DNA of 64,000 bases from Cytophagales bacterium Alg240-R148 (GCA_900537185.1 LS999830.1:47440-111439), one strand, 5' to 3'; shown: positions 4,727 through 15,569, counted from the stretch's first letter. Translations and numbers: made by a program. The notes: a model not told the origin generated them from the sequence alone.

Positions 4727-5623
4727 ATGACCAATTTCAAAGAAAATAGGATCAGGGAGGGTAGGACCCACTATATGGCCAAAAATATAACAATCTATGG
4801 GTTGATCCATGTTGTTCCATTTTTAGCCTTTTTTACTGGGACCAATAGAATTGACTGGATTATTTGTGCGGTATTGTATTTTGTAAGAATGTTTTTTATT
4901 ACAGGAGGATACCACAGGTATTTTGCGCATAGGGCTTTCAAAACATCCAGGGCTTTTCAGTTTTTCTTAGCTTTTATGGCACAAACTTCTGTTCAAAAAG
5001 GAGTTTTGTGGTGGGCTGCCAACCATAGGGTACACCATCGGTACAGCGACGAAAATGAGGATCCCCACTCTATGAAGTTATTCGGCTTTTTACATTCTCA
5101 TATGGGTTGGTTGTTTATTGACAAATACAAACCAACGCGATTGAAATTAATAGGAGACTATGCTAAGTTTAAAGAATTAGTATGGCTCAATAACAACCAT
5201 TTGGTGCCACCATTTTTTATGGCCCTTACTGTATTTTTAATCGGAGGTTTCACTTCTTATGATGGCGTGGCCATGAGCACTTTTTGGACAGGAGCTGCCT
5301 CTTGTTTGTTTATTGGTTTTTTCTTGTCTACCATCATATTGTACCAAGGAACTTACTCTATTAATTCGTTGATGCATTTAATAGGTAGAAAGCGATACAA
5401 GACAACAGACAATTCTAGAAATAGTTTTGTACTGGCCTTAATAACCTTAGGAGAAGGTTGGCACAACAACCACCACCACTACATGGCATCGTTGCGCCAG
5501 GGATGGTTTTGGTGGGAAATTGATATCACCTTTTACATTCTAAAAATATTTTCTTGGATGGGATTAATTTGGGACATAGTTCCAGTTCCAGATAAGATAA
5601 AATTTTCGCATAAGGACAAATAA
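4727..5623 (+). CDS. acyl-CoA/acyl-lipid delta-9 fatty acid desaturase
   Basis: Three histidine boxes (HRYFAHRAF, HRVHHRYSD, HNNHHHY) in a four-TM protein of about 300 aa. This is the stearoyl-CoA desaturase family signature. Confidence 0.8.
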   Translation: MTNFKENRIREGRTHYMAKNITIYGLIHVVPFLAFFTGTNRIDWIICAVLYFVRMFFITGGYHRYFAHRAFKTSRAFQFFLAFMAQTSVQKGVLWWAANHRVHHRYSDENEDPHSMKLFGFLHSHMGWLFIDKYKPTRLKLIGDYAKFKELVWLNNNHLVPPFFMALTVFLIGGFTSYDGVAMSTFWTGAASCLFIGFFLSTIILYQGTYSINSLMHLIGRKRYKTTDNSRNSFVLALITLGEGWHNNHHHYMASLRQGWFWWEIDITFYILKIFSWMGLIWDIVPVPDKIKFSHKDK

Positions 5624-5792: not shown

Positions 5793-6998
5793 TTACTCGC
5801 TTGATAACTCTTTTATTATGTCGTCGAACTTGTTTTCAAAAGATTGGTAATAACTTCCGGTGGCAGGTCCATTGAAATAACTTTGAACGTAGCGTACAAA
5901 ACCGGATTTATCAATGAACACTAGAGTAGGGAAAGCCTGAATTTTCTTCATAAATGGAAAAGCCAAAGCAGCATGCCCTTTGTTGAGTGGTCCGCCTACA
6001 ATCATGGTATGGGACAAACCGAGTTCCTTTTTATAATCTTCAATTCTTTGGAGGCCATAGGCCAACGAATAATTGGCTTCGTAGTTAACAGAAATTAAGT
6101 TGATATTGGAATTTGGGTGTGCTTCCAACCAATTTTTCAAGAAGTTGGTTTGGTCCAGGCTATTAGGGCACCAAGTACCAAAGAGCTGGATAACCACGAC
6201 TTGATCAAAATAGTCATCTCCATCCAATTTATTTGCTTTGTCCGCTGATAATATGTCGTAATACGGGCGGTATTTGTGCTTTTCTATTTTTTGGAACTCG
6301 AAGGGGTCTACCAATGCAGCAGCAGCATTTTTTTTCGCAGTCCATTTTTCCGAATAAGCATTGTCATAGTATACCTTACCTGTTAATTCCCCTTGTAACA
6401 ACCGACCTTTGAATAAAAAGGCATGCGTACCGTCAAATGCAGAAAGCAGCATGGAGTCGTTTCGTACGATCCCCTCAAGGTACCTATAGTCACTTGTTTC
6501 GGTTAATACAGTGCCTTCTAAAAACTGTGCTTTTTGGTTGAGAATTAGCACGCCGTCGTAGGGCACGGATCCACTTGGTTCAAAAGTTATGCTGTATTTA
6601 CCATTGAAGTCTGATGGAGTAGATGGTAGTTTGGATTCGAACCTTGGTTGGTTGTAATGGGCAGTAAATTGGATAGGTTTTGATTTGTAGTTTTTAATCC
6701 AGACGCCTTCTATGTTAGTTGGTGTATAAATTCCTTTAATCTCGGTGTCAAATACTGGTAACTCTACCACTATACTGTCCCCAAAAAGCTTCAAATTTTG
6801 TATGTCTATCAATTCGGTGCTATTGGTTATGGTCATCTGAACGGTACCGTTTGGGCCCTTGTAAAATTTAAAGTCAAAAGGAACTTTTGCATCTTCATAA
6901 TAGACAATTCCTTTCCAATTACCCATTTTTAATTTTTGGGCAACAATAGGAAAAGATGTAATGGTGCAGGTGAGTAGAACTAAAATGAATCGGATCAT
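5793..6998 (-). CDS. secreted thioredoxin-fold (TlpA/AhpC-TSA-like) protein with an N-terminal domain of unknown function. The active site is the monothiol variant WCPNS.
   Basis: Signal peptide. C-terminal block 'VVIQLFGTWCPNSLDQ' matches the TlpA-like WCxxC region but reads CxxS. Confidence 0.55.
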   Translation of the reverse strand: MIRFILVLLTCTITSFPIVAQKLKMGNWKGIVYYEDAKVPFDFKFYKGPNGTVQMTITNSTELIDIQNLKLFGDSIVVELPVFDTEIKGIYTPTNIEGVWIKNYKSKPIQFTAHYNQPRFESKLPSTPSDFNGKYSITFEPSGSVPYDGVLILNQKAQFLEGTVLTETSDYRYLEGIVRNDSMLLSAFDGTHAFLFKGRLLQGELTGKVYYDNAYSEKWTAKKNAAAALVDPFEFQKIEKHKYRPYYDILSADKANKLDGDDYFDQVVVIQLFGTWCPNSLDQTNFLKNWLEAHPNSNINLISVNYEANYSLAYGLQRIEDYKKELGLSHTMIVGGPLNKGHAALAFPFMKKIQAFPTLVFIDKSGFVRYVQSYFNGPATGSYYQSFENKFDDIIKELSSE

Positions 6999-7087: not shown

Positions 7088-7960
7088 ATGGGCGAAAAAA
7101 TGGATCAGGGTAGAATAAATGAAATTTTGGATAAAATAGCTGGTTTGGCTGCTCTTGACTACGACAGCGAGATTGATATCAAGGACAATAATGATGAATT
7201 GGCAGCAATAGCAGTAGGGCTTAATATGTTGGGAGAAGAATTGAAAGCACAGGTGGTCAGCAAAAACCAATTGACCAATATCAATTCTAAGTTAGAAAAA
7301 TTTGCTTATTCCACGGCACATGATTTAAAATCACCATTGAATGCCATTGCTGGTTTGGTTTCCTTGATAGAACTTTATAGCCAACCGGAAAACGACGACC
7401 TTAAAGCATGTATAGGCCAGTTAAAAACTGTCGTTTCCAATATGAAAAACATGGTTATTGGCATATTAAATTATTCGAGAAGCGATTCCAACGAATTGGA
7501 TTTTGAAAGGCTCAACCTGCATGAATTGATTCAATCTGTAATCCGCCAAGATGGGTTTGGGGATCTCGCTCAGATTTCGATTAAGGATCAGTTACCGGTG
7601 GTTTGGTTCAATAAAATTTCTGCTATACAAGTGGTGCGCAATATTTTTGACAATGCAATTAAATACTGTGACAAACCCTTGTGTGAAATAGCAGTAAATG
7701 TTTACAACAAGGAAGCGCATTATGAAATTGAAATTAAGGACAATGGTCCCGGTATTGACCCCAAAGACCAGAGTCAAATTTTCGATTTATTTAACAGCTT
7801 AAATCAACCCCATAATTCAGAAAGCTTTGGCATAGGGCTGGCCAACGTAAAACAAATTCTACAATCCAGTGGAGAGAAAATTTGGGTTGAATCTGAATTA
7901 GGAGCAGGTGCTACCTTTATATTTACCTTAAAAAAGGAAAACCATGTACAGAGAAACTGA
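7088..7960 (+). CDS. cytoplasmic sensor histidine kinase (HisKA + HATPase_c) with no TM segments
   Basis: H-box 'FAYSTAHDLKSPLNAIAGL'. N, G1 and G2 boxes ('DNGPGI', 'GIGLANVKQI', 'GAGATF') are present. Confidence 0.75.
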   Translation: MGEKMDQGRINEILDKIAGLAALDYDSEIDIKDNNDELAAIAVGLNMLGEELKAQVVSKNQLTNINSKLEKFAYSTAHDLKSPLNAIAGLVSLIELYSQPENDDLKACIGQLKTVVSNMKNMVIGILNYSRSDSNELDFERLNLHELIQSVIRQDGFGDLAQISIKDQLPVVWFNKISAIQVVRNIFDNAIKYCDKPLCEIAVNVYNKEAHYEIEIKDNGPGIDPKDQSQIFDLFNSLNQPHNSESFGIGLANVKQILQSSGEKIWVESELGAGATFIFTLKKENHVQRN

Positions 7961-8315
7961 AAAGATTAAGTTTACAATGTTGGAAGGAGGGATTCTCAAT
8001 ACTGAATGCTTTCCAAAAACCACCATGACTTTGGAAGATGGGATAGAAAGTACTCGAATATCAGCAGAAATGAACGAAGGACAAGAATTGCCACTGTTGT
8101 GCGACATCACCAATGTTGTGAAAATGTCACAAGAATGCAGAAAACATTTTGCCGGGGAAGAACATGCCAAAACATTCAGCAAATGTGCCTTGATAATTTC
8201 CAACCCCATAAGCAAAATAATTGGTAACTTTTTTATGGGATTGAACAAGCCATTAAAGCCGACCAAGCTGTTTACAAACAAATCGGATGGGTTGCAATGG
8301 CTTCAAAAGAGCTAA
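7944..8315 (+). CDS. small hypothetical protein, possibly STAS/SpoIIAA-like. It overlaps the HK stop by 17 nt.
   Basis: 123-aa ORF translationally coupled to the histidine kinase. The fold assignment is speculative. Confidence 0.35.
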   Translation: MYRETEKIKFTMLEGGILNTECFPKTTMTLEDGIESTRISAEMNEGQELPLLCDITNVVKMSQECRKHFAGEEHAKTFSKCALIISNPISKIIGNFFMGLNKPLKPTKLFTNKSDGLQWLQKS

Positions 8316-11300
8316 TTCTTTTTCAAGTTGGGCAAAATCAATACAAAAGAAGTACCTTCATTTAAATTGCTTTTCACAGAAATTTCACCTTGCAAAGCTT
8401 CGGCGTATTTTTTAACAATGGACAAACCGAGCCCTGTTGATGATTCATTGCCAGTTGGTTTGGCAGATAGTTTTTGAAACTTATTGAACAACTTTCCTTG
8501 GTCTTCTGGGCTAATTCCCGGTCCGTAATCCTTAATTTCAATTTGTACATCGGTATTTTCCTTTTCTATGAAAATGTCAATTTTACTATTTTCGTATGAA
8601 AATTTGATTGCATTGGATAAGAGGTTGTCAATTATTTGAATGAAATAGTGTTTGTCCATTTGAAAATTAAGCCCGTTGTGCATGGAGTGTAAATTTACTT
8701 GGATGCCTTTTGGTGCAGTTACGTTGCTGTAATTTGAAATGATGGTGTGCAGTACTTCAATTATATCCAACTGCTCAATTTTAAGTTCTATTTTTTGGGT
8801 ATCAATAGTACTAATGTCCAAGATCCTAGTGATCATTCCATTTAAGTAATTGGTAGCTTCAATCATTTTATCGGTATACTCCGTTACCGATTTGTCTTGA
8901 GAAGTCATTGCGGTTAATTCAGCAAGGCCCTTTACTTGATTTAATGGACTGCGAAGATCATGAGAAACTACATTGATTAGATCGTCTTTTTCTTGGTTGA
9001 TCACTTTGAGTGCTTCATTTCGTTTTCTCAATTCTTCTTTTTGAATTTCTATCTCTTGTGTTCTTTCTTTTATTTTCAGTTCCATGTTATCGTAAAGAAT
9101 GGCATTGTTTAGGGTTATGGCCATCTGACCGGATAACAATTTGATCAACTCTAGCCTTTCAACTGTAAAGGCACCTTTTACTAAATTGTTTTCCAAATAG
9201 ATAACTCCTAACAACTTGTTGTGCAATACAATTGGAATACACAAAATGGACTCTGTTTTATTTTGTTTGATATAAGGGTCGCGGGCATATTTACTGTCGG
9301 CATGCGCACTTTCAATTACAATATTTTCTTTAGATCGTTTGGTATATTGTATAATGGATAGGGGTACTATGTTCTGCTTAAGAACTTCGCCAGAATTGAT
9401 GATGCGCACTTTGTTGTTAATGGTGTTGCTGGCTGCAAGTTTTAGCTCATCGTTGTTGTTGAGTAAAAATAAACCGTTTTCAGCACCGGCGTTTTCAACC
9501 ACTATTTTTAAGAGGTTGTCAATTACTTTTTCAAGTTTTATTTCACTTGATATGGTCGAAGAAGACTTAAGTATGGTGGTCAGATCGAGCAAAGAACTGC
9601 CCGCTGATAAAGTGCTAAATGTTTTCGCATTTGAAAACTCAAATTGTTCTAAAAGAATATCTGCATATTCTTTTTCAAAAGCAGCTACTTTGGCGCCAGC
9701 CCCCCACATTTTATAAGCTTCATAGGCCTTTTTTAAATAATAGGTGTGTTGTTCTTCGTCTGCTTCTTTTTCATGGTGTCTAGCAAATAACTCCAGAGCA
9801 ATGGCATGTTCATTGGTGTATCCATTTTCCGATGCAAGCAATATGGCTTTCTTATAGAAATTACAAGCTGCTTCGTTGTTCTCTAAAACAATAGAATTGT
9901 AAATTCCGAGCAAGGTTAATCTTTTGTGTTCAAAGTTTTCTGGAGAATGAGCAGACCAATTCTTGAGTTTTTTGAGATCCGTTTTGTACCATTGTTTTAT
10001 TTTTGACTTTTGCTGTTTCGAAGCAGAAGGCCAATAAGAAATACCAATAAGAGATCTCAAATAATGGAAAGACGGAATAAACGCGGTGGAAAGCGCAATG
10101 TCCAAATGGTTTTGAAGATTGGCAATATTGTCAAAAGCCAATTTATGGCTTCCAAATAAAAAGCCGAGAAACACTTTGCCGTAATAAATATGGAATAAGG
10201 CAGTCTTGTCTTTTTTATAAGTTCCGTTTTCCAGCCCTTCAAAGTACTCCTTTTCACTAAAATAAGGTCCTTCAAGTTGGGCAGAGCTACCATTGTCTTG
10301 GAAGACATTAATAGTACGCTGTAAAGATATTTTGCTGTATAGCGCATAGGTGACCTGACCCATTTGATCAATTTTTTCATGGAACTCCTTAATTTTTGGT
10401 ATGGAGTGGTTCAGGTCTTCTCCTAATAAAAAAGAATGGTAGGCATGAATAAAAAGAGAGGATGCTGCATATTGTGGATCTCCTGTTTCCATTGCTGTGA
10501 AATAAGATTCTTTCAGCATGGGGATGGACTCTTTTAAATGCCTTTTCCAGTGGTTGATAAATCCACTAAATATTACCTGCGTCTTGGATTTTATTTGCTT
10601 GGCATCTGGAGTGCTTTTTAAAAGATCTAACGATAATTCTCCAAATTCGAATCCCTTTTCAATTTCACCGGTTACGGCGCACAATATGGTTCCGTAGCCA
10701 CCATAAAAAGAAATTAATTGTATCGAGTTGCCGTGTTTAACCGCTAGTTGTATGGACTTGAATATGGTAATGGGAAATAGCTCTGGAGCATTGTGGTATC
10801 CTGCCGTACTCAAGCTAGACAACGTGTTGATGGCCAAGTTTAGTTTTTCCTCTTCCGTAAAATTCAAATCTTTGAAAAAGGAAATCTGCTTTTTCCCAAC
10901 GATGAATTTGGTTTTTAGCAGTTCTGTGATCACATTAAACTTGTTAGGGTTGGCAGGTATTTTAATCCCTAAATTCTGTAAAATGTCGATTCCAATTGTA
11001 ATTACTTCATCGTGTTTGTGGGCCGCCAGGTAGGCGTAAATATAAACATTTTCCACCTTAACTTTATCCGTTATGGATTCGCAATGTTCGATCATTTGGT
11101 CTCCTGTAGACTTCATTAAATCCAATTGACCAATCAAATGTGCGGCTTCTATGTACCTTAAATGCACATCGTACATGAGGTAGTAATCCTCTTCCCAGTA
11201 TTTTTCACCTAGGCAATCCTTGGACCTTTGAAAGAAATTAAAGGCAGCGTTGTAGGCAGAGGATATTCTTGCTCTTAAACCAGCTTTGTAGTTGAGCATG

Positions 11301-13543
11301 GAAAGTTGCTTGATTTCCACATCGGATTTAATATGTTCAGCGCCTAAATTAAGGTGGTGAACAATGTCAAAAAGCTCTTCACGGTAGGACTCCGTTTTTG
11401 AATTAAGTAAAATGTTTTTACCGATGTGTTTGTGGGTAGTACTTTTTTGCTCCGCGTCCAAACTTTCGTAAGCAGCCTCCCTAACCCGGTCATGTGCAAA
11501 TTTATATTCTTTGGTTGGGCCCTGATCCAGGTCTCTTTCATCAGAATCTATTCCAATTTCAATAATGAATTGCTCTTCAATAACTGCTTGAAGCAATTGT
11601 TCCAGTTCTTCGGTTTCTTTGTTACAGAGAATACCCAAGTCATAGGAATTAAATTTGATTCCAAAACAACTTGCTACTGTAATAATTTCTATGGTTTGAG
11701 CTGGTAAGTTTTTAAGTTTTAGAATAATAAATTCCACCACATTGTCCGTGAAATCCATTTTTTCCATTTCGGCCACTTTCCAGTCCCATTTTCCGATGGA
11801 ATTGACTTCATCGGTTTTAAAGAAATTGAAAAATATGAAGCGCTGTTCGTACATCGAACGCAGAAACTGGTTTAAGAAAAACGGGTTGCCCCCAGTTTTA
11901 TCAAAAACGATTTTGGTCAATTGGTTGCTTTCAGATTCAGTTGTTTTGAAAGTGTCATTGATTAAGGACTGCGTATTCTGAATGGATATGTCCTTAAGTT
12001 TTATTCTTTCAAAATCAACGGCAGCATCGGCTATGGCTTTAATAGCATCTGTTAATGGGTGAAGAGGGGGTAAGTCGTTGCCTCTGTACGCGCAAAGCAG
12101 TGTAATGTTTTTTATGTCTGGATCTAATATGAGTTTTTCCAACAACTGTGTAGAGGCATAATCAGACCATTGCAAATCGTCAATAAACAATATTATGGAC
12201 CTTTCTGTACTGGTTATTCCTTTAAAAAACTTAAGAAATACATAAATTAATCTGTTTTGGGCTTCGTTGATACCCAATGGGCTGAGTTCGGGTTGTTGTC
12301 CTATAATTAGTTCTAAAGAAGGAAACAAGTCGGTCATTATTTTACCTTCATTGCCAATGGTATTCAGAATGATGGATTTCCAGTTGTTTAATACCGATTC
12401 TTTTTCTGAAAGTATGAAATCAACAAAGGAGTGAATTGCTTGGCCTATGCCGAAAAATGGGGTGTCACTGAAGTATTCTTCGTGTTTGCCATACAATAAA
12501 AAGCTTTTTTTGAGTAGAAAGGGTCGGGTCGCCTCCTCTATTAAAGTAGATTTGCCTGTACCAGCGCTACCTTCTGTAAAAACTACTTTTTTCTTAAGAC
12601 TACAATTTTTTATAGCGCTTTTGATAATATCCATACTGGCATCTCTTCCATAAAGCTTGTTGGAAAGGATGAGTTTTACAGGAACATCGTTTTTACCTGT
12701 TTCAAATAGAGGGATGTCAATGTTTTCTATTAAGGATTTCCTACATTTTTTAAGGTCTGCTAACAACCCACGTGCAGATTGGTAGCGTTGGTCGACATTT
12801 TTTGCCAATAATTTCAAAACAATATCTGAAACAACGCTAGGCAGGCTTTGGTTTTTTTCGTTGAGGGGCGTTGGTACAATGGCCAAATGAGCGTGGAATA
12901 TTTCAAGTGGTTCTTCATGTTCAAATGGCAATGCATTGGTGAACATTTCATACAACATGATTCCGAATGAGTAGAGGTCGGTTCTATGGTCTATTGGGTG
13001 GTTGGTCCTGCCAGTTTGTTCTGGAGATATGTAGGGCAAGGTGCCTTCGTTGAATTCACTAACTTTTTTAGTCGGGTCCCCAACATGAAATTTTGAAGCA
13101 GAACCAAAATCTACAACTGCTATGTTCCTGTCGTCGTTTATTAGGATGTTATAAGGGTTGAAATCGCAGTGGACGATCTCATTGGAATGTATGTCTGCCA
13201 GTGTTTTGCATATTTCTATGGCAATATCCAATTTCAAAGAGAACGAATAAAATCCAGATTTGAGGGCTTGTTTTAATGTAATTCCATCAAAATATTCTAG
13301 CTCTAAAATCGGTGCACTGTCAATATTTTTAATGCTTTTTACTTTTCTAACATTTTCAATATCGATGCCATTCAGAACCTCGTATTCATTCTTTATTTGT
13401 TCAGAATACGGGAAATGGTTTTGTTTGTCTTTTAATTTTTTTACAATAGAAAAGTCAGCTGTTTTTTCATTCTCAACCAACAGAATAACCGAGTTACTAC
13501 CTTCTGCTATTTTCTTGCCTTCAAAATTCTTACCCATGTTCAA
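8312..13543 (-). CDS. multi-domain signalling protein. Domain order is Ser/Thr-kinase-like, P-loop NTPase (AAA/NACHT-like), TPR repeats, GAF, HisKA and HATPase_c.
   Basis: - N-terminal kinase motifs: VKKL (beta3 Lys), HCDFNPYN catalytic loop, DFG, SPE.
- Walker A 'GSAGTGKST' and Walker B 'ILFIDDLQWSD'.
- A long helical repeat region.
- C-terminal H-box 'VVSHDLRSPLN' plus N/G boxes 'NAIKFS', 'DYGPGI', 'GLGLSIVKK'. Confidence 0.8.
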   Translation of the reverse strand: MNMGKNFEGKKIAEGSNSVILLVENEKTADFSIVKKLKDKQNHFPYSEQIKNEYEVLNGIDIENVRKVKSIKNIDSAPILELEYFDGITLKQALKSGFYSFSLKLDIAIEICKTLADIHSNEIVHCDFNPYNILINDDRNIAVVDFGSASKFHVGDPTKKVSEFNEGTLPYISPEQTGRTNHPIDHRTDLYSFGIMLYEMFTNALPFEHEEPLEIFHAHLAIVPTPLNEKNQSLPSVVSDIVLKLLAKNVDQRYQSARGLLADLKKCRKSLIENIDIPLFETGKNDVPVKLILSNKLYGRDASMDIIKSAIKNCSLKKKVVFTEGSAGTGKSTLIEEATRPFLLKKSFLLYGKHEEYFSDTPFFGIGQAIHSFVDFILSEKESVLNNWKSIILNTIGNEGKIMTDLFPSLELIIGQQPELSPLGINEAQNRLIYVFLKFFKGITSTERSIILFIDDLQWSDYASTQLLEKLILDPDIKNITLLCAYRGNDLPPLHPLTDAIKAIADAAVDFERIKLKDISIQNTQSLINDTFKTTESESNQLTKIVFDKTGGNPFFLNQFLRSMYEQRFIFFNFFKTDEVNSIGKWDWKVAEMEKMDFTDNVVEFIILKLKNLPAQTIEIITVASCFGIKFNSYDLGILCNKETEELEQLLQAVIEEQFIIEIGIDSDERDLDQGPTKEYKFAHDRVREAAYESLDAEQKSTTHKHIGKNILLNSKTESYREELFDIVHHLNLGAEHIKSDVEIKQLSMLNYKAGLRARISSAYNAAFNFFQRSKDCLGEKYWEEDYYLMYDVHLRYIEAAHLIGQLDLMKSTGDQMIEHCESITDKVKVENVYIYAYLAAHKHDEVITIGIDILQNLGIKIPANPNKFNVITELLKTKFIVGKKQISFFKDLNFTEEEKLNLAINTLSSLSTAGYHNAPELFPITIFKSIQLAVKHGNSIQLISFYGGYGTILCAVTGEIEKGFEFGELSLDLLKSTPDAKQIKSKTQVIFSGFINHWKRHLKESIPMLKESYFTAMETGDPQYAASSLFIHAYHSFLLGEDLNHSIPKIKEFHEKIDQMGQVTYALYSKISLQRTINVFQDNGSSAQLEGPYFSEKEYFEGLENGTYKKDKTALFHIYYGKVFLGFLFGSHKLAFDNIANLQNHLDIALSTAFIPSFHYLRSLIGISYWPSASKQQKSKIKQWYKTDLKKLKNWSAHSPENFEHKRLTLLGIYNSIVLENNEAACNFYKKAILLASENGYTNEHAIALELFARHHEKEADEEQHTYYLKKAYEAYKMWGAGAKVAAFEKEYADILLEQFEFSNAKTFSTLSAGSSLLDLTTILKSSSTISSEIKLEKVIDNLLKIVVENAGAENGLFLLNNNDELKLAASNTINNKVRIINSGEVLKQNIVPLSIIQYTKRSKENIVIESAHADSKYARDPYIKQNKTESILCIPIVLHNKLLGVIYLENNLVKGAFTVERLELIKLLSGQMAITLNNAILYDNMELKIKERTQEIEIQKEELRKRNEALKVINQEKDDLINVVSHDLRSPLNQVKGLAELTAMTSQDKSVTEYTDKMIEATNYLNGMITRILDISTIDTQKIELKIEQLDIIEVLHTIISNYSNVTAPKGIQVNLHSMHNGLNFQMDKHYFIQIIDNLLSNAIKFSYENSKIDIFIEKENTDVQIEIKDYGPGISPEDQGKLFNKFQKLSAKPTGNESSTGLGLSIVKKYAEALQGEISVKSNLNEGTSFVLILPNLKKN

Positions 13544-13615
13544 AATTCTTAATATTCAAAATTAATCATTTTGACATGGAAAGCAATTGTCTGATAAACG
13601 AAAAATACACTAGTA

Positions 13616-14296
13616 CTAAGCGGCAATGATGTAAGAAATTACGGCAGCAGCGAATATCCAAAAGCCACCAACCAACCCAATTCCTATTGAAGTATTGGTG
13701 CTTTTTTTAGTGGCATAAACAAGCAAATAAGGCAAAGAAAATGATATGAGGGCCTCACAGAGTATCACGTAAATAGGTGCATTCATGAACATTTTTGTGT
13801 TCAATTTGTAAAACCACCAGCCTGCATCTTTCGCTAAATGCTCGTAAATTGGGATGTACATTCCTCCAGCAATTGCAATCATAATGGAAGCAGGAACTGT
13901 TCCTTTCCAACGTGAAAGCAATAGACTGTAGTACCCTAATTGGATTAAAACGTTGCACCAAGCAAAAGGCATATACAATGGACTGCTCCAAATCATTAAT
14001 TCACTCTTCGGATAGACTAATGAATCTACCGTACTCACTAGGTAGTGGTCTGCCGCAAGTTCCACAATACCCGCGACCAATCCAAAATAGATCAATTTGG
14101 TGAGCAGGACGTTTTTTGTGAACCAAGCGTAGCCTACAAACATGGCAAATAATGCAAAGGTTAATACAAAAATTGAAAACGGGCCAGTAGCCAAAAAAGA
14201 GCTGGCGATGGACCAGATCATCATCACTATTTGGGAGAAAACGACTAAATAGGTAAGCCGTTTGGTTACTTGAGGTAATGCAAGTGTAGAACTCAT
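13616..14296 (-). CDS. polytopic membrane protein (about 6 TM) of unknown function
   Basis: 226 aa with multiple hydrophobic spans. It is co-directional with, and 4 nt downstream of, the oxygenase-like gene. Confidence 0.5.
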   Translation of the reverse strand: MSSTLALPQVTKRLTYLVVFSQIVMMIWSIASSFLATGPFSIFVLTFALFAMFVGYAWFTKNVLLTKLIYFGLVAGIVELAADHYLVSTVDSLVYPKSELMIWSSPLYMPFAWCNVLIQLGYYSLLLSRWKGTVPASIMIAIAGGMYIPIYEHLAKDAGWWFYKLNTKMFMNAPIYVILCEALISFSLPYLLVYATKKSTNTSIGIGLVGGFWIFAAAVISYIIAA

Positions 14297-14300
14297 GTGT

Positions 14301-15569
14301 TTATTTTTTTTGTTGCCAAGCCAGGCGATTTCCTAATATATTCGGTGTAATTACTTTTCTATCGACCCATTCTTCGTCTAATTTCCAGTTTTTCTGTAAA
14401 GATGGAGGAATGTAGAAATGCACATTTTTTCCTTTGTTAAAGTGTGCTATAATGCCTTGAAGGAGGATTTTGTTGAACCTTCCCGATAAGTGTCGCATCA
14501 GTTTGGAATGGTCCTGAATGTTGTCGACTTCCCCAACCAACAATCGAATAATGAAAGTGACCGTTTTTGAAGTCATGTCTTTGTGGTCATGGACGCCAAT
14601 CATACTAGACAAATCCAACCCTGCATCTTCCGATAAATCCTGCATAAAATACCAAATCATATATTCGGGAATCGAGTCAAATTTATTTCCTGGTATCAAA
14701 TACTTTAAAAAGTTGATGCAAGAGGTAGTTAATTGTACCCCATCTTCAGAAAAGGCAGACTGGTGTTGCAAGATTTTAATGGCCAAATTCCTGCCATCTT
14801 GGAAGGTGTCGGGAAGAAGGTCTTCGTCCAATCCCATTAAATAGCCAATTACTTTCCAAATATGGCTGTATCCAGCTTCTTGCTCCTCCGTAAAGTCAAT
14901 GTTTAATTTTTTGAGACCAGAAAGAATTACAGGAGCAAAAGACATGAGGGTTCCAGCTAAGTCTTCTTGGTTAATTGGTTCACCCAACTCCTGAATGTCC
15001 CATTCTATTTTGCTTTTTAAATAGTACCGAATGGAGGCATGGATGAGTCTAATTTTTTGAATGGTTACAACGCCATTACCATCTTCAGAAAAACTGCCAG
15101 GACTTAATACATTGGTAACCATTTGTGCTGTTTCCATAAGCCTTCTAGCCAATGGGTCAATATCGGAACCACTTTCATGCAACCTACCTGTTGTAAACAA
15201 AACCTTAGCACCCTTTGCACAAGTGTAACACAAGGGCAGTGATTTTACGTTGAGTAACATGAATATTTCTGGGCCATACAAACTGAAAACTTCTTGGCCC
15301 TTGTCTATTAAGGTCCTGTCTGCCCAAGTGGGTAGGGAGTGGCTTTCTGCGAAGTAACCTACCACCGCATTTTTAATGTGGCTATCCAACCCTTCAAAAT
15401 GGGATTCCGAATAATCGTGGTTGCGCATTAAAGTACCAAGTACTTTATTCACCTCTTCCTGAGAACCGTTTTCAATTATGTTTTGGATAACCTGATCTGC
15501 TAATGGATCTGCTTTTAACCTCTTATCTGCTAAAAACTGAGTAGTAATTTGCTCTATATCAAAATGCAT
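14301..15569 (-). CDS. MpaB/DUF2236-family oxygenase-like protein (tentative)
   Basis: 422 aa, mostly helical and soluble. The central block with conserved Arg/His ('IRLIHASIRYYL') is reminiscent of DUF2236/latex-clearing-protein-like oxygenases. The assignment is by recall only. Confidence 0.35.
   Translation of the reverse strand: MHFDIEQITTQFLADKRLKADPLADQVIQNIIENGSQEEVNKVLGTLMRNHDYSESHFEGLDSHIKNAVVGYFAESHSLPTWADRTLIDKGQEVFSLYGPEIFMLLNVKSLPLCYTCAKGAKVLFTTGRLHESGSDIDPLARRLMETAQMVTNVLSPGSFSEDGNGVVTIQKIRLIHASIRYYLKSKIEWDIQELGEPINQEDLAGTLMSFAPVILSGLKKLNIDFTEEQEAGYSHIWKVIGYLMGLDEDLLPDTFQDGRNLAIKILQHQSAFSEDGVQLTTSCINFLKYLIPGNKFDSIPEYMIWYFMQDLSEDAGLDLSSMIGVHDHKDMTSKTVTFIIRLLVGEVDNIQDHSKLMRHLSGRFNKILLQGIIAHFNKGKNVHFYIPPSLQKNWKLDEEWVDRKVITPNILGNRLAWQQKK

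Follow-up and report, generated by a model that had tools for sequence, protein, structure and literature searches.

Sequence and Structure Predictions Place a Cytophagales Multi-Kinase with an Asn-Type Catalytic Loop in the Dual Protein Kinase Family

A stretch of 64,000 nucleotides from Cytophagales bacterium Alg240-R148 (GCA_900537185.1 LS999830.1:47440-111439; hereafter the window, with positions counted from its first letter) was analyzed with a focus on a single large gene on the minus strand. The gene encodes a multi-domain protein (the multi-kinase) that joins a Hanks-type protein kinase domain to a histidine kinase transmitter, and the catalytic loop of the Hanks domain lacks the lysine of canonical Ser/Thr kinases. 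Judged from its sequence, the protein is an ordinary, fairly divergent member of the bacterial "dual protein kinase" family (HstK/cbSTKIII, "trifunctional"), within which the unusual loop is the majority form. A mechanical call gives an uninterrupted open reading frame (ORF) at 8312..13543 with 1743 codons from a TTG at 13543, the length reported in an initial annotation of the locus. An independent NCBI entry (P0001) of 1741 amino acids is 100% identical to the window protein and starts at an ATG two codons further in (N-terminus MGKNFEG). The ATG at 13537 is therefore probably the true start, and the likelier gene product, encoded at 8312..13537, is 1741 amino acids long.

The initial annotation described one polypeptide combining a protein kinase, a Walker A/B NTPase, a GAF domain and a HisKA/HATPase output without a receiver, and the Pfam matches and motif readings along the protein agree with this description. 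The Hanks-type kinase domain comes first (residues 9-255, 12779..13519, on the minus strand like all features of the gene; Pfam Pkinase E 1e-34, 120.7 bits against a cut-off of 31.7) and is directly followed by the AAA_16 core of a STAND NTPase (residues 296-479, 12107..12658; Pfam E 7e-21, 75.9 bits against a cut-off of 32.6) with the Walker A motif GSAGTGKST at 12545-12571 and the Walker B motif ILFIDDLQW at 12167-12193. A helical/winged-helix arm and a TPR-like α-solenoid, assigned from an AlphaFold (AF2) model and its fold matches, occupy residues 480-1336 (9536..12106) and lead into a GAF domain (residues 1337-1478, 9110..9535; Pfam E 4e-11, 44 bits against a cut-off of 22.4). The transmitter consists of HisKA (DHp; residues 1519-1582, 8798..8989; Pfam E 4e-12, 46.5 bits), whose H-box SHDLRSPL at 8942-8965 carries His1528, and of HATPase_c with N, G1, F and G2 boxes (residues 1632-1738, 8330..8650; Pfam E 1e-25, 90.6 bits). 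Pfam detects no Response_reg domain in the multi-kinase and the protein ends 5 residues past HATPase_c; with no receiver predicted to be fused to the transmitter, it is not a hybrid histidine kinase.

This layout comprises the features that identify a dual protein kinase, i.e. a Hanks kinase, an AAA_16 domain directly after it, at least one GAF domain between the two kinases, and HisKA plus HATPase_c with the His. Cyanobacterial members of the family were described in 2001 as HstK and later surveyed as "dual protein kinases" or cbSTKIII, classified as "KD" and not "RD" kinases (PMC2176072, PMC1262709), and the presence of at least one GAF domain between the Ser/Thr and the histidine kinase is a dual-kinase feature (PMC2176072). 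Homology to named members extends from end to end (at least 97% query coverage, E = 0) for P0036 ("trifunctional"; the NCBI name of some members is "trifunctional" STK-ATPase-sensor HK), P0005, P0022 and P0025 ("ATP-binding sensor histidine kinase"). The closest relative is only 42% identical to the window multi-kinase.

The catalytic loop (H125-C-D127-F-N129-P-Y-N132, 13148..13171) is encoded by the codons cac tgc gat ttc aac cct tat aac. A phmmer search against solved structures aligned ivHCDFNPYNili to iiHRDVKPANili of PknB, placing N129 (AAC) opposite PknB K140. Codons and alignment both agree with the annotated reading HCDFNPYN, in which the catalytic Asp is kept and the Lys is replaced by Asn. 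The same alignment contains no shifted Lys near the loop, which removes the possibility that the motif was misread and that the canonical Lys lies nearby. By these alignments, the window kinase truly has Asn in place of the Lys two positions after the catalytic Asp (D+2), and Cys in place of the HRD Arg. The Gly-rich loop was also annotated correctly as degenerate (AEGSNSV, residues 13-19, 13487..13507), with the middle Gly (the equivalent of PKA G52) alone kept, and the DFG motif (residues 145-147 with D145, 13103..13111) and the SPE motif (residues 173-175) are intact as described. The β3 (VAIK) Lys is K35 (13439..13441), and K35, E53, D127, N132 and D145 align to PknB K40, E59, D138, N143 and D156. 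The phmmer alignment to PknB starts only at residue 75, the N-lobe before that point being too divergent. The AF2 model of the kinase domain (mean predicted local distance difference test score, pLDDT, 91.5) has PknB as its best PDB match (template modelling (TM) scores 0.78/0.86, root-mean-square deviation 2.1 Å), and secondary Pfam matches to ABC1, APH and RIO1 cover residues 73-152. Overall, the window kinase departs from the canonical Hanks pattern in the Lys at D+2 (HRDxKxxN) and in the GxGxxG loop. Pseudokinases are operationally defined by the loss of the VAIK Lys, the HRD Asp or the DFG Asp (cf. PMC4718504), and all three are kept.

The state of the loop was then compared across the family. 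Among the scored candidates of a full-length search, 3,588 proteins reached E <= 1e-10, and the best 120 were used as the homologue set. These 120 proteins span Bacteroidota, Cyanobacteria, Desulfobacterota and others and all have the kinase-AAA_16-GAF plan; more than 100 proteins of the same domain order show full-length homology at E = 0. Their kinase domains were aligned with PknB using MAFFT (the C-lobe of the PknB sequence used agrees with the phmmer alignment). The column of PknB K140 contains N in 83, S in 29 and K in 5 homologues. A larger set of 210 kinase-NTPase fusions was assembled from the 120 homologues and the 150 best representatives of a kinase-domain search, keeping proteins in which a Walker A motif follows the kinase domain. 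Here the Lys position holds N in 138 proteins, K in 35, S in 32, T in 4 and V in 1, such that N, S or T is present in 174 out of 210. The family consensus of the loop is HKDINPSN. Of 21 orthologue ORFs linked to the operon described below, three of which come from loci retrieved twice, 17 have S at the position, 4 have N and none has K. The exhaustive kinase-domain search matched 5,959 clusters at 50% identity (E <= 1e-30), the best of which are mostly proteins of similar length that are matched from the N-terminus.

An alignment against HstK-type multi-kinases had been proposed to establish whether the K-to-N replacement is family-wide, and the 174 N, S or T residues answer this positively. 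The description of the loop as atypical holds against textbook Ser/Thr kinases but not within the family to which the protein belongs, where Asn is the majority residue; since the initial annotation had itself named such a result as the mark of an ordinary family member, the window protein is one by that measure as well. The Gly-rich loop follows a conserved alternative, [YA]-E-[SG]-x-N-S (E in 102, N in 87 and S in 104 of the 120 homologues), and this conservation argues against decay. The Asn loop and the polar Gly-loop thus appear as inherited family signatures and not as a lesion of the window gene. At the HRD Arg position the 120 homologues carry K in 89, R in 23 and C in 1 case, and HCD occurs in 3 of the 210 fusions; the Cys at this position is the single feature that the alignments mark as specific to the window kinase.

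The other catalytic residues are strongly conserved. Across the 120 homologues the β3 Lys (119/120), the αC Glu (118/120), the HxD His (118/120) and Asp (114/120), the Mg-binding catalytic Asn (118/120), the DFG Asp (116/120), the APE Glu (119/120), the αF Asp (120/120) and the subdomain XI Arg (118/120) are retained, and the replacement residues are themselves conserved. A comparison of the kinase-like superfamily lists ten key residues (G52, K72, E91, P104, H158, H164, D166, N171, D184 and D220; Kannan et al., PMC1821047), and the stretch of four residues that separates the HxD Asp from the Asn is a family-specific signature among kinase-like families (PMC1821047). Of these ten residues, nine were located in the window kinase and all nine are present; K168 is off that list. 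Rio (S), Bud32 (T) and Haspin (H) are enzymatically active although none of them has the D+2 Lys. The Pfam matches to RIO1, ABC1 and APH, together with the JGI label "Bud32" on homologues, reflect likeness to such Lys-less kinases. Because the other catalytic residues are 95-100% conserved, a functional ATP/Mg site is favoured over a decayed pseudokinase. The suggestion that the domain is either an unusual active kinase or a pseudokinase scaffold is narrowed accordingly: the conservation disfavours a decayed pseudokinase, whereas a regulatory role of the N-terminal part fits the data.

The middle of the protein had been annotated as an NTPase with TPR repeats. The repeats have no significant Pfam match in the multi-kinase (TPR_CHK1 reaches only E 0.013), but the assignment of an NTPase plus a TPR-like sensor is right at the level of the fold. 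In an AlphaFold model of residues 291-1335 (pLDDT 88.9, predicted TM score 0.82), a P-loop NTPase and a helical/winged-helix arm are accompanied by about 30 helices arranged in pairs. Within the PDB, the model best matches 6mfv (STAND-TPR, E 9e-10), Apaf-1, SAMD9, MalT and CED-4, followed by TPR proteins. In an alignment of 72 homologues the GxxGxGK motif and the first Walker B Asp are invariant and the second Asp is nearly so. As modelled, the middle of the multi-kinase is a STAND NTPase, with the nucleotide-binding oligomerization domain (NOD) and arm that define the class, followed by a repeat sensor.

The C-terminal outputs vary within the family. Based on the Pfam lists of the 120 homologues, approximately 105 carry histidine kinase transmitters (approximately 45 with receivers), 7 carry class III cyclases and 7 carry PP2C/SpoIIE phosphatases; the cyclase- or phosphatase-fused homologues include P0062, P0067, P0069, P0078, P0080, P0090, P0092 and P0098. 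In Candida Chk1, deletion of the kinase and AAA parts mimics the null mutant, and removal of the GAF domain as well partly restores function (PMC9069115). The constant core, the varied outputs and the Chk1 deletions support the view of the kinase-NOD-repeat-GAF core as a portable regulatory chassis that controls the attached output. In this weaker form, the earlier proposal of an N-terminal part driving the C-terminal histidine kinase fits these observations.

The multi-kinase gene lies directly downstream of two genes on the same strand. Immediately upstream, separated by a 72-nt gap, is a gene for a multi-pass membrane protein of the DUF6989 family (13616..14296, minus strand, 226 amino acids; Pfam E 1e-44), and 4 nt before it lies the first gene of the operon, which encodes an MpaB/Lcp-family oxygenase-like protein (14301..15569, minus strand, 422 amino acids; Pfam MPAB_Lcp_cat E 2e-12). 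The order MpaB, DUF6989, kinase was found in all seven orthologue contexts that were inspected. A scan with a DUF6989 alignment against one genome per species identified 48 loci, 43 of them in Bacteroidota (Cytophagales-type); the window genome is outside the scanned species representatives and its best DUF6989 match is 59%. The MpaB gene is located upstream of DUF6989 in all 43 Bacteroidota loci, and the three-gene MpaB-DUF6989-histidine kinase operon is present in 41 of them. The downstream gene on the same strand is the ~1750-amino-acid multi-kinase in 18 out of 43 loci (Marinoscillum, Marinigracilibium, Cyclobacteriaceae) and a ~445-amino-acid kinase with an N-terminal multi-transmembrane sensor in 23 out of 43 loci (Ekhidna, Fulvivirga, Reichenbachiella, Chryseolinea; e.g., L011:10701-12023 and L042:10789-12171), with neither kinase downstream in the remaining 2. 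In Acidobacteriota and other lineages, where the DUF6989 loci are more distant, MpaB is still the neighbour but no kinase is present. The window transmitter scores 116-164 bits against the ~445-amino-acid kinases and mostly ~95-110 bits (best three 118-142) against the transmitters of cyanobacterial family members. This closer relation to the multi-transmembrane kinases of the same slot than to most cyanobacterial ones suggests a sensor swap: the transmitter lineage appears tied to the operon, and the sensor part appears to have been exchanged at a fixed locus.

Within the 72-nt gap, the sequence TAATTTTG (13557-13564, minus strand) is located ~20 nt upstream of the ATG and matches the Bacteroidota -7 promoter consensus TAnnTTTG. 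In Ekhidna, the genes directly upstream of MpaB encode a histidine kinase with DUF4154 (YfiR-like) and, in addition, two single-domain response regulators (L011:5833-8606 and other Ekhidna loci); these proteins are candidate partners of the operon kinase in that genus and have no equivalent in the window.

The chemistry of the operon is hinted at by its gene content. The MpaB/Lcp family is known for the oxidative cleavage of prenyl chains. Furthermore, a gene for a Pyr4-like transmembrane terpene cyclase (PF25129) lies between DUF6989 and the multi-kinase at two loci, one in a Fulvivirga genome and the other in a metagenome contig (L052:4280-4972 and L053:4238-4924); neither the window nor the other loci contain this cyclase, and no relation was detected between DUF6989 and the Pyr4-like cyclase (hhalign probability 0.3%). 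The MpaB/Lcp chemistry and the cyclase together hint at isoprenoid chemistry. DUF6989 is not mentioned in the searchable literature. A doubtful conjecture is that the Cytophagales operon (MpaB, DUF6989, an optional Pyr4-like cyclase and a histidine kinase) is a hitherto undescribed module that senses a membrane isoprenoid or lipid oxidation product, which would be read in the membrane by the multi-transmembrane kinase in some genera and in the cytoplasm by the STK-STAND-GAF kinase in others, including the window genome. If true, a concrete input signal would be in hand for the first time in the dual-kinase family, and such a module would provide a natural sensor swap with which to ask what the Asn-type kinase domain contributes.

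Overall, the observations are probably best explained by an ordinary dual protein kinase with a family-signature loop, a STAND switch and an operon-linked input. The multi-kinase would act as a cytoplasmic STAND switch in which the TPR-like solenoid and/or the GAF domain would read a signal and thereby change the nucleotide state or oligomerization of the AAA_16 NOD. The state of the NOD would then set the autophosphorylation of His1528 in the C-terminal transmitter, from which the phosphoryl group would be passed to a response regulator encoded elsewhere. The Hanks domain, whose ATP/Mg site is complete at the level of sequence, would probably bind and turn over ATP, and could either phosphorylate Ser/Thr, in the protein itself or in a partner, or regulate the switch as a module that depends on nucleotide. 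Because the kinase is the third cistron after MpaB and DUF6989 in the Cytophagales subclade, the input signal would probably be tied to the lipid/isoprenoid chemistry of the MpaB-like and DUF6989 proteins.

Several points weigh against this explanation. The searchable literature yielded no published Ser/Thr kinase activity for a member of the family, and nothing relevant on the loop motif or on the domain combination. The catalytic-loop Lys normally contacts the γ-phosphate, and a mutual-information analysis of the 210 kinase domains identified no compensating basic residue that tracks the split between K and N/S; the top columns (mutual information <= 0.26) are scattered and look phylogenetic. 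The window kinase also has no Lys or Arg at the HRD position (Cys, 3/210). Co-transcription of the kinase with the two upstream genes is deduced from gene order and spacing, and TAATTTTG could be an internal promoter, which would weaken strict co-transcription. Finally, although the 64-kb window encodes two histidine kinases, none of its ORFs of at least 80 amino acids gave a receiver match with a hidden Markov model that was built from five textbook receivers and does find the control regulators in L002 and L003; the partner regulator would thus be unlinked.

Some of these points are shared by a reading in which the N-terminal domain is a true pseudokinase that binds nucleotide or nothing and serves, without phosphotransfer, as an allosteric or dimerization scaffold for the STAND switch and the histidine kinase. 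This is rather unlikely. The domain has lost the Lys of the catalytic loop and two of three glycines in the Gly-loop, Cys replaces the HRD Arg/Lys in the window protein, phmmer cannot align the N-lobe to PknB before residue 75, activity of family members is unreported in the searchable literature, and a regulatory role would fit a core that stays constant while its outputs are exchanged. Against this, the usual marks of a pseudokinase are missing, as the VAIK Lys, the HRD Asp and the DFG Asp are kept, and the 95-100% conservation of these three residues, the αC Glu and the Mg-binding Asn in 120 homologues from several phyla is hard to explain without catalysis or precise ATP/Mg binding; Rio, Bud32 and Haspin are active without the D+2 Lys. 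The stretch from the HxD Asp to the Asn, moreover, varies between kinase-like families (PMC1821047).

The missing Lys would also suit a kinase acting on a small molecule, e.g., the product of the MpaB/DUF6989 neighbours, and not on a protein. The absence of the D+2 Lys and the polar Ser/Asn Gly-loop recall choline/aminoglycoside-type kinases (Ser/Thr-Asn Gly-loops occur in ChoK, PMC1821047), as do the secondary ABC1, APH and RIO1 matches at residues 73-152. Such an activity is nevertheless very improbable, as the C-lobe keeps features that are specific to protein kinases and conserved to 98% or more (an extended activation segment GT...SPE together with the αF Asp and the subdomain XI Arg), PknB and eukaryotic protein kinases, and not the CAK family, come closest in structure, and the N variant is family-wide whatever the genomic context. 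A role as an anti-phage STAND/kinase defence protein (PD-T4-6-like, MADS MAD6-like or Avs-like) could be read from the PADLOC matches to PD-T4-6 (E 6e-45) and mad6 (5e-42), the NCBIfam MAD6 match (1e-28) and the STAND NTPase architecture. All of these matches are confined to the generic kinase domain (residues ~7-275), the MAD6 score of 100 is far from the NCBIfam cut-off of 460, and PADLOC gives nothing for the neighbouring genes, and the anti-phage reading was rejected on these grounds; with an output that is a two-component transmitter and a gene that is vertically conserved across genera in a metabolic-looking operon, it is extremely improbable. Least credible is an artefact, either a sequencing error in the loop (AAC for AAR, Asn and Lys codons being one third-position base apart) or a mis-joined ORF that created the whole fusion. 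An identical protein exists in an independent NCBI entry (P0001), and orthologues from dozens of genomes carry N or S at the site within the same uninterrupted architecture of ~1750 amino acids, which makes the chance of an artefact practically negligible.

The region beyond the 3' end of the multi-kinase gene contains a convergent gene pair on the plus strand. A 290-amino-acid soluble HisKA/HATPase_c kinase (7088-7960, Pfam) overlaps a 123-amino-acid DUF7793 protein (7944-8315, Pfam) by 17 nt, suggesting translational coupling, and the end of the DUF7793 ORF overlaps the multi-kinase stop region by 4 nt. Both ORFs and their convergence on the 3' end are as initially annotated. A link between this pair and the multi-kinase was considered and rejected, as flanking genes were examined at three orthologous loci and the pair is missing from all three, and the two genes are treated as unrelated neighbours. 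Further along, a FA_desaturase-family protein (4727-5623, plus strand) and a 401-amino-acid protein with a weakly AhpC/TSA-like C-terminus (5793-6998, minus strand) are encoded; neither is conserved beside orthologues.

The loop that appears atypical in the window protein is the norm in its family and is not worth flagging gene by gene. The family is very large, ranging from Bacteroidota and Cyanobacteria to fungi, and its Asn/Ser-type loop is apparently without biochemistry in the searchable literature, such that deciding between kinase and pseudokinase for this loop would annotate thousands of proteins. The MpaB-DUF6989 context with its interchangeable sensor kinases makes the input signal tractable for one subclade.

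Four groups of known systems resemble parts of the multi-kinase or its whole plan. Compared with PknB-type kinases, the Hanks domain shares the fold (TM 0.78-0.87, 26% identity) and has the β3 Lys, αC Glu, HxD Asp, Asn, DFG, SPE, αF Asp and subdomain XI Arg in place; it differs by lacking the D+2 Lys and the HRD Arg, by a single Gly in the Gly-loop, and by the absence of a PASTA or transmembrane part. The STAND NTPases (MalT, PH0952/6mfv, Apaf-1) share the NOD with Walker A/B motifs, the helical/winged-helix arm and the TPR-like solenoid, as well as the position of an effector domain N-terminal to the NOD. Sequence identity between the solved STANDs and the window protein is only 10-14%, and unlike them the window protein contains a second, C-terminal signalling module (GAF plus transmitter) past the repeat sensor. 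M. tuberculosis PknK is an example of a kinase-bearing STAND with a C-terminal TPR sensor.

The cyanobacterial dual kinases (HstK/Alr2258, Pkn41, cbSTKIII) have the same order of Hanks kinase, AAA_16, helical repeats, GAF, HisKA and HATPase_c, and the cyanobacterial and "trifunctional" members are 31-36% identical to the window protein over 85-100% of the query (E 1e-270 to 0). They also share the non-RD loop with Asn at the Lys position (HKDINPSN) and the polar Gly-loop. The window protein and its Cytophagales clade differ from them in lacking the C-terminal receiver that is present in approximately 45 of the 120 homologues, and the window protein further differs in reading HCD where the family has HKD and in being encoded in an MpaB-DUF6989 operon, which lacks a downstream kinase at only 1 of the 43 Bacteroidota DUF6989 loci and was not observed at the non-Bacteroidota ones. 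Outside the bacteria, the fungal group X kinases (Candida albicans Chk1 and the S. pombe peroxide sensors Mak2/Mak3) show the S_TKc-AAA_16-GAF-HisKA-HATPase plan with an added receiver (PMC9069115, PMC5383687). The fungal proteins are longer (Chk1 has 2471 amino acids), contain a receiver and feed the Ypd1/Mpr1 phosphorelay, in which they are unlike the window protein. The comparison with the fungal proteins was made at the level of the domain plan; TPR_CHK1 weakly touches the window middle (E 0.013) and is on record for several bacterial homologues, and the fungal genetics show that the kinase and AAA part is needed for histidine kinase function.

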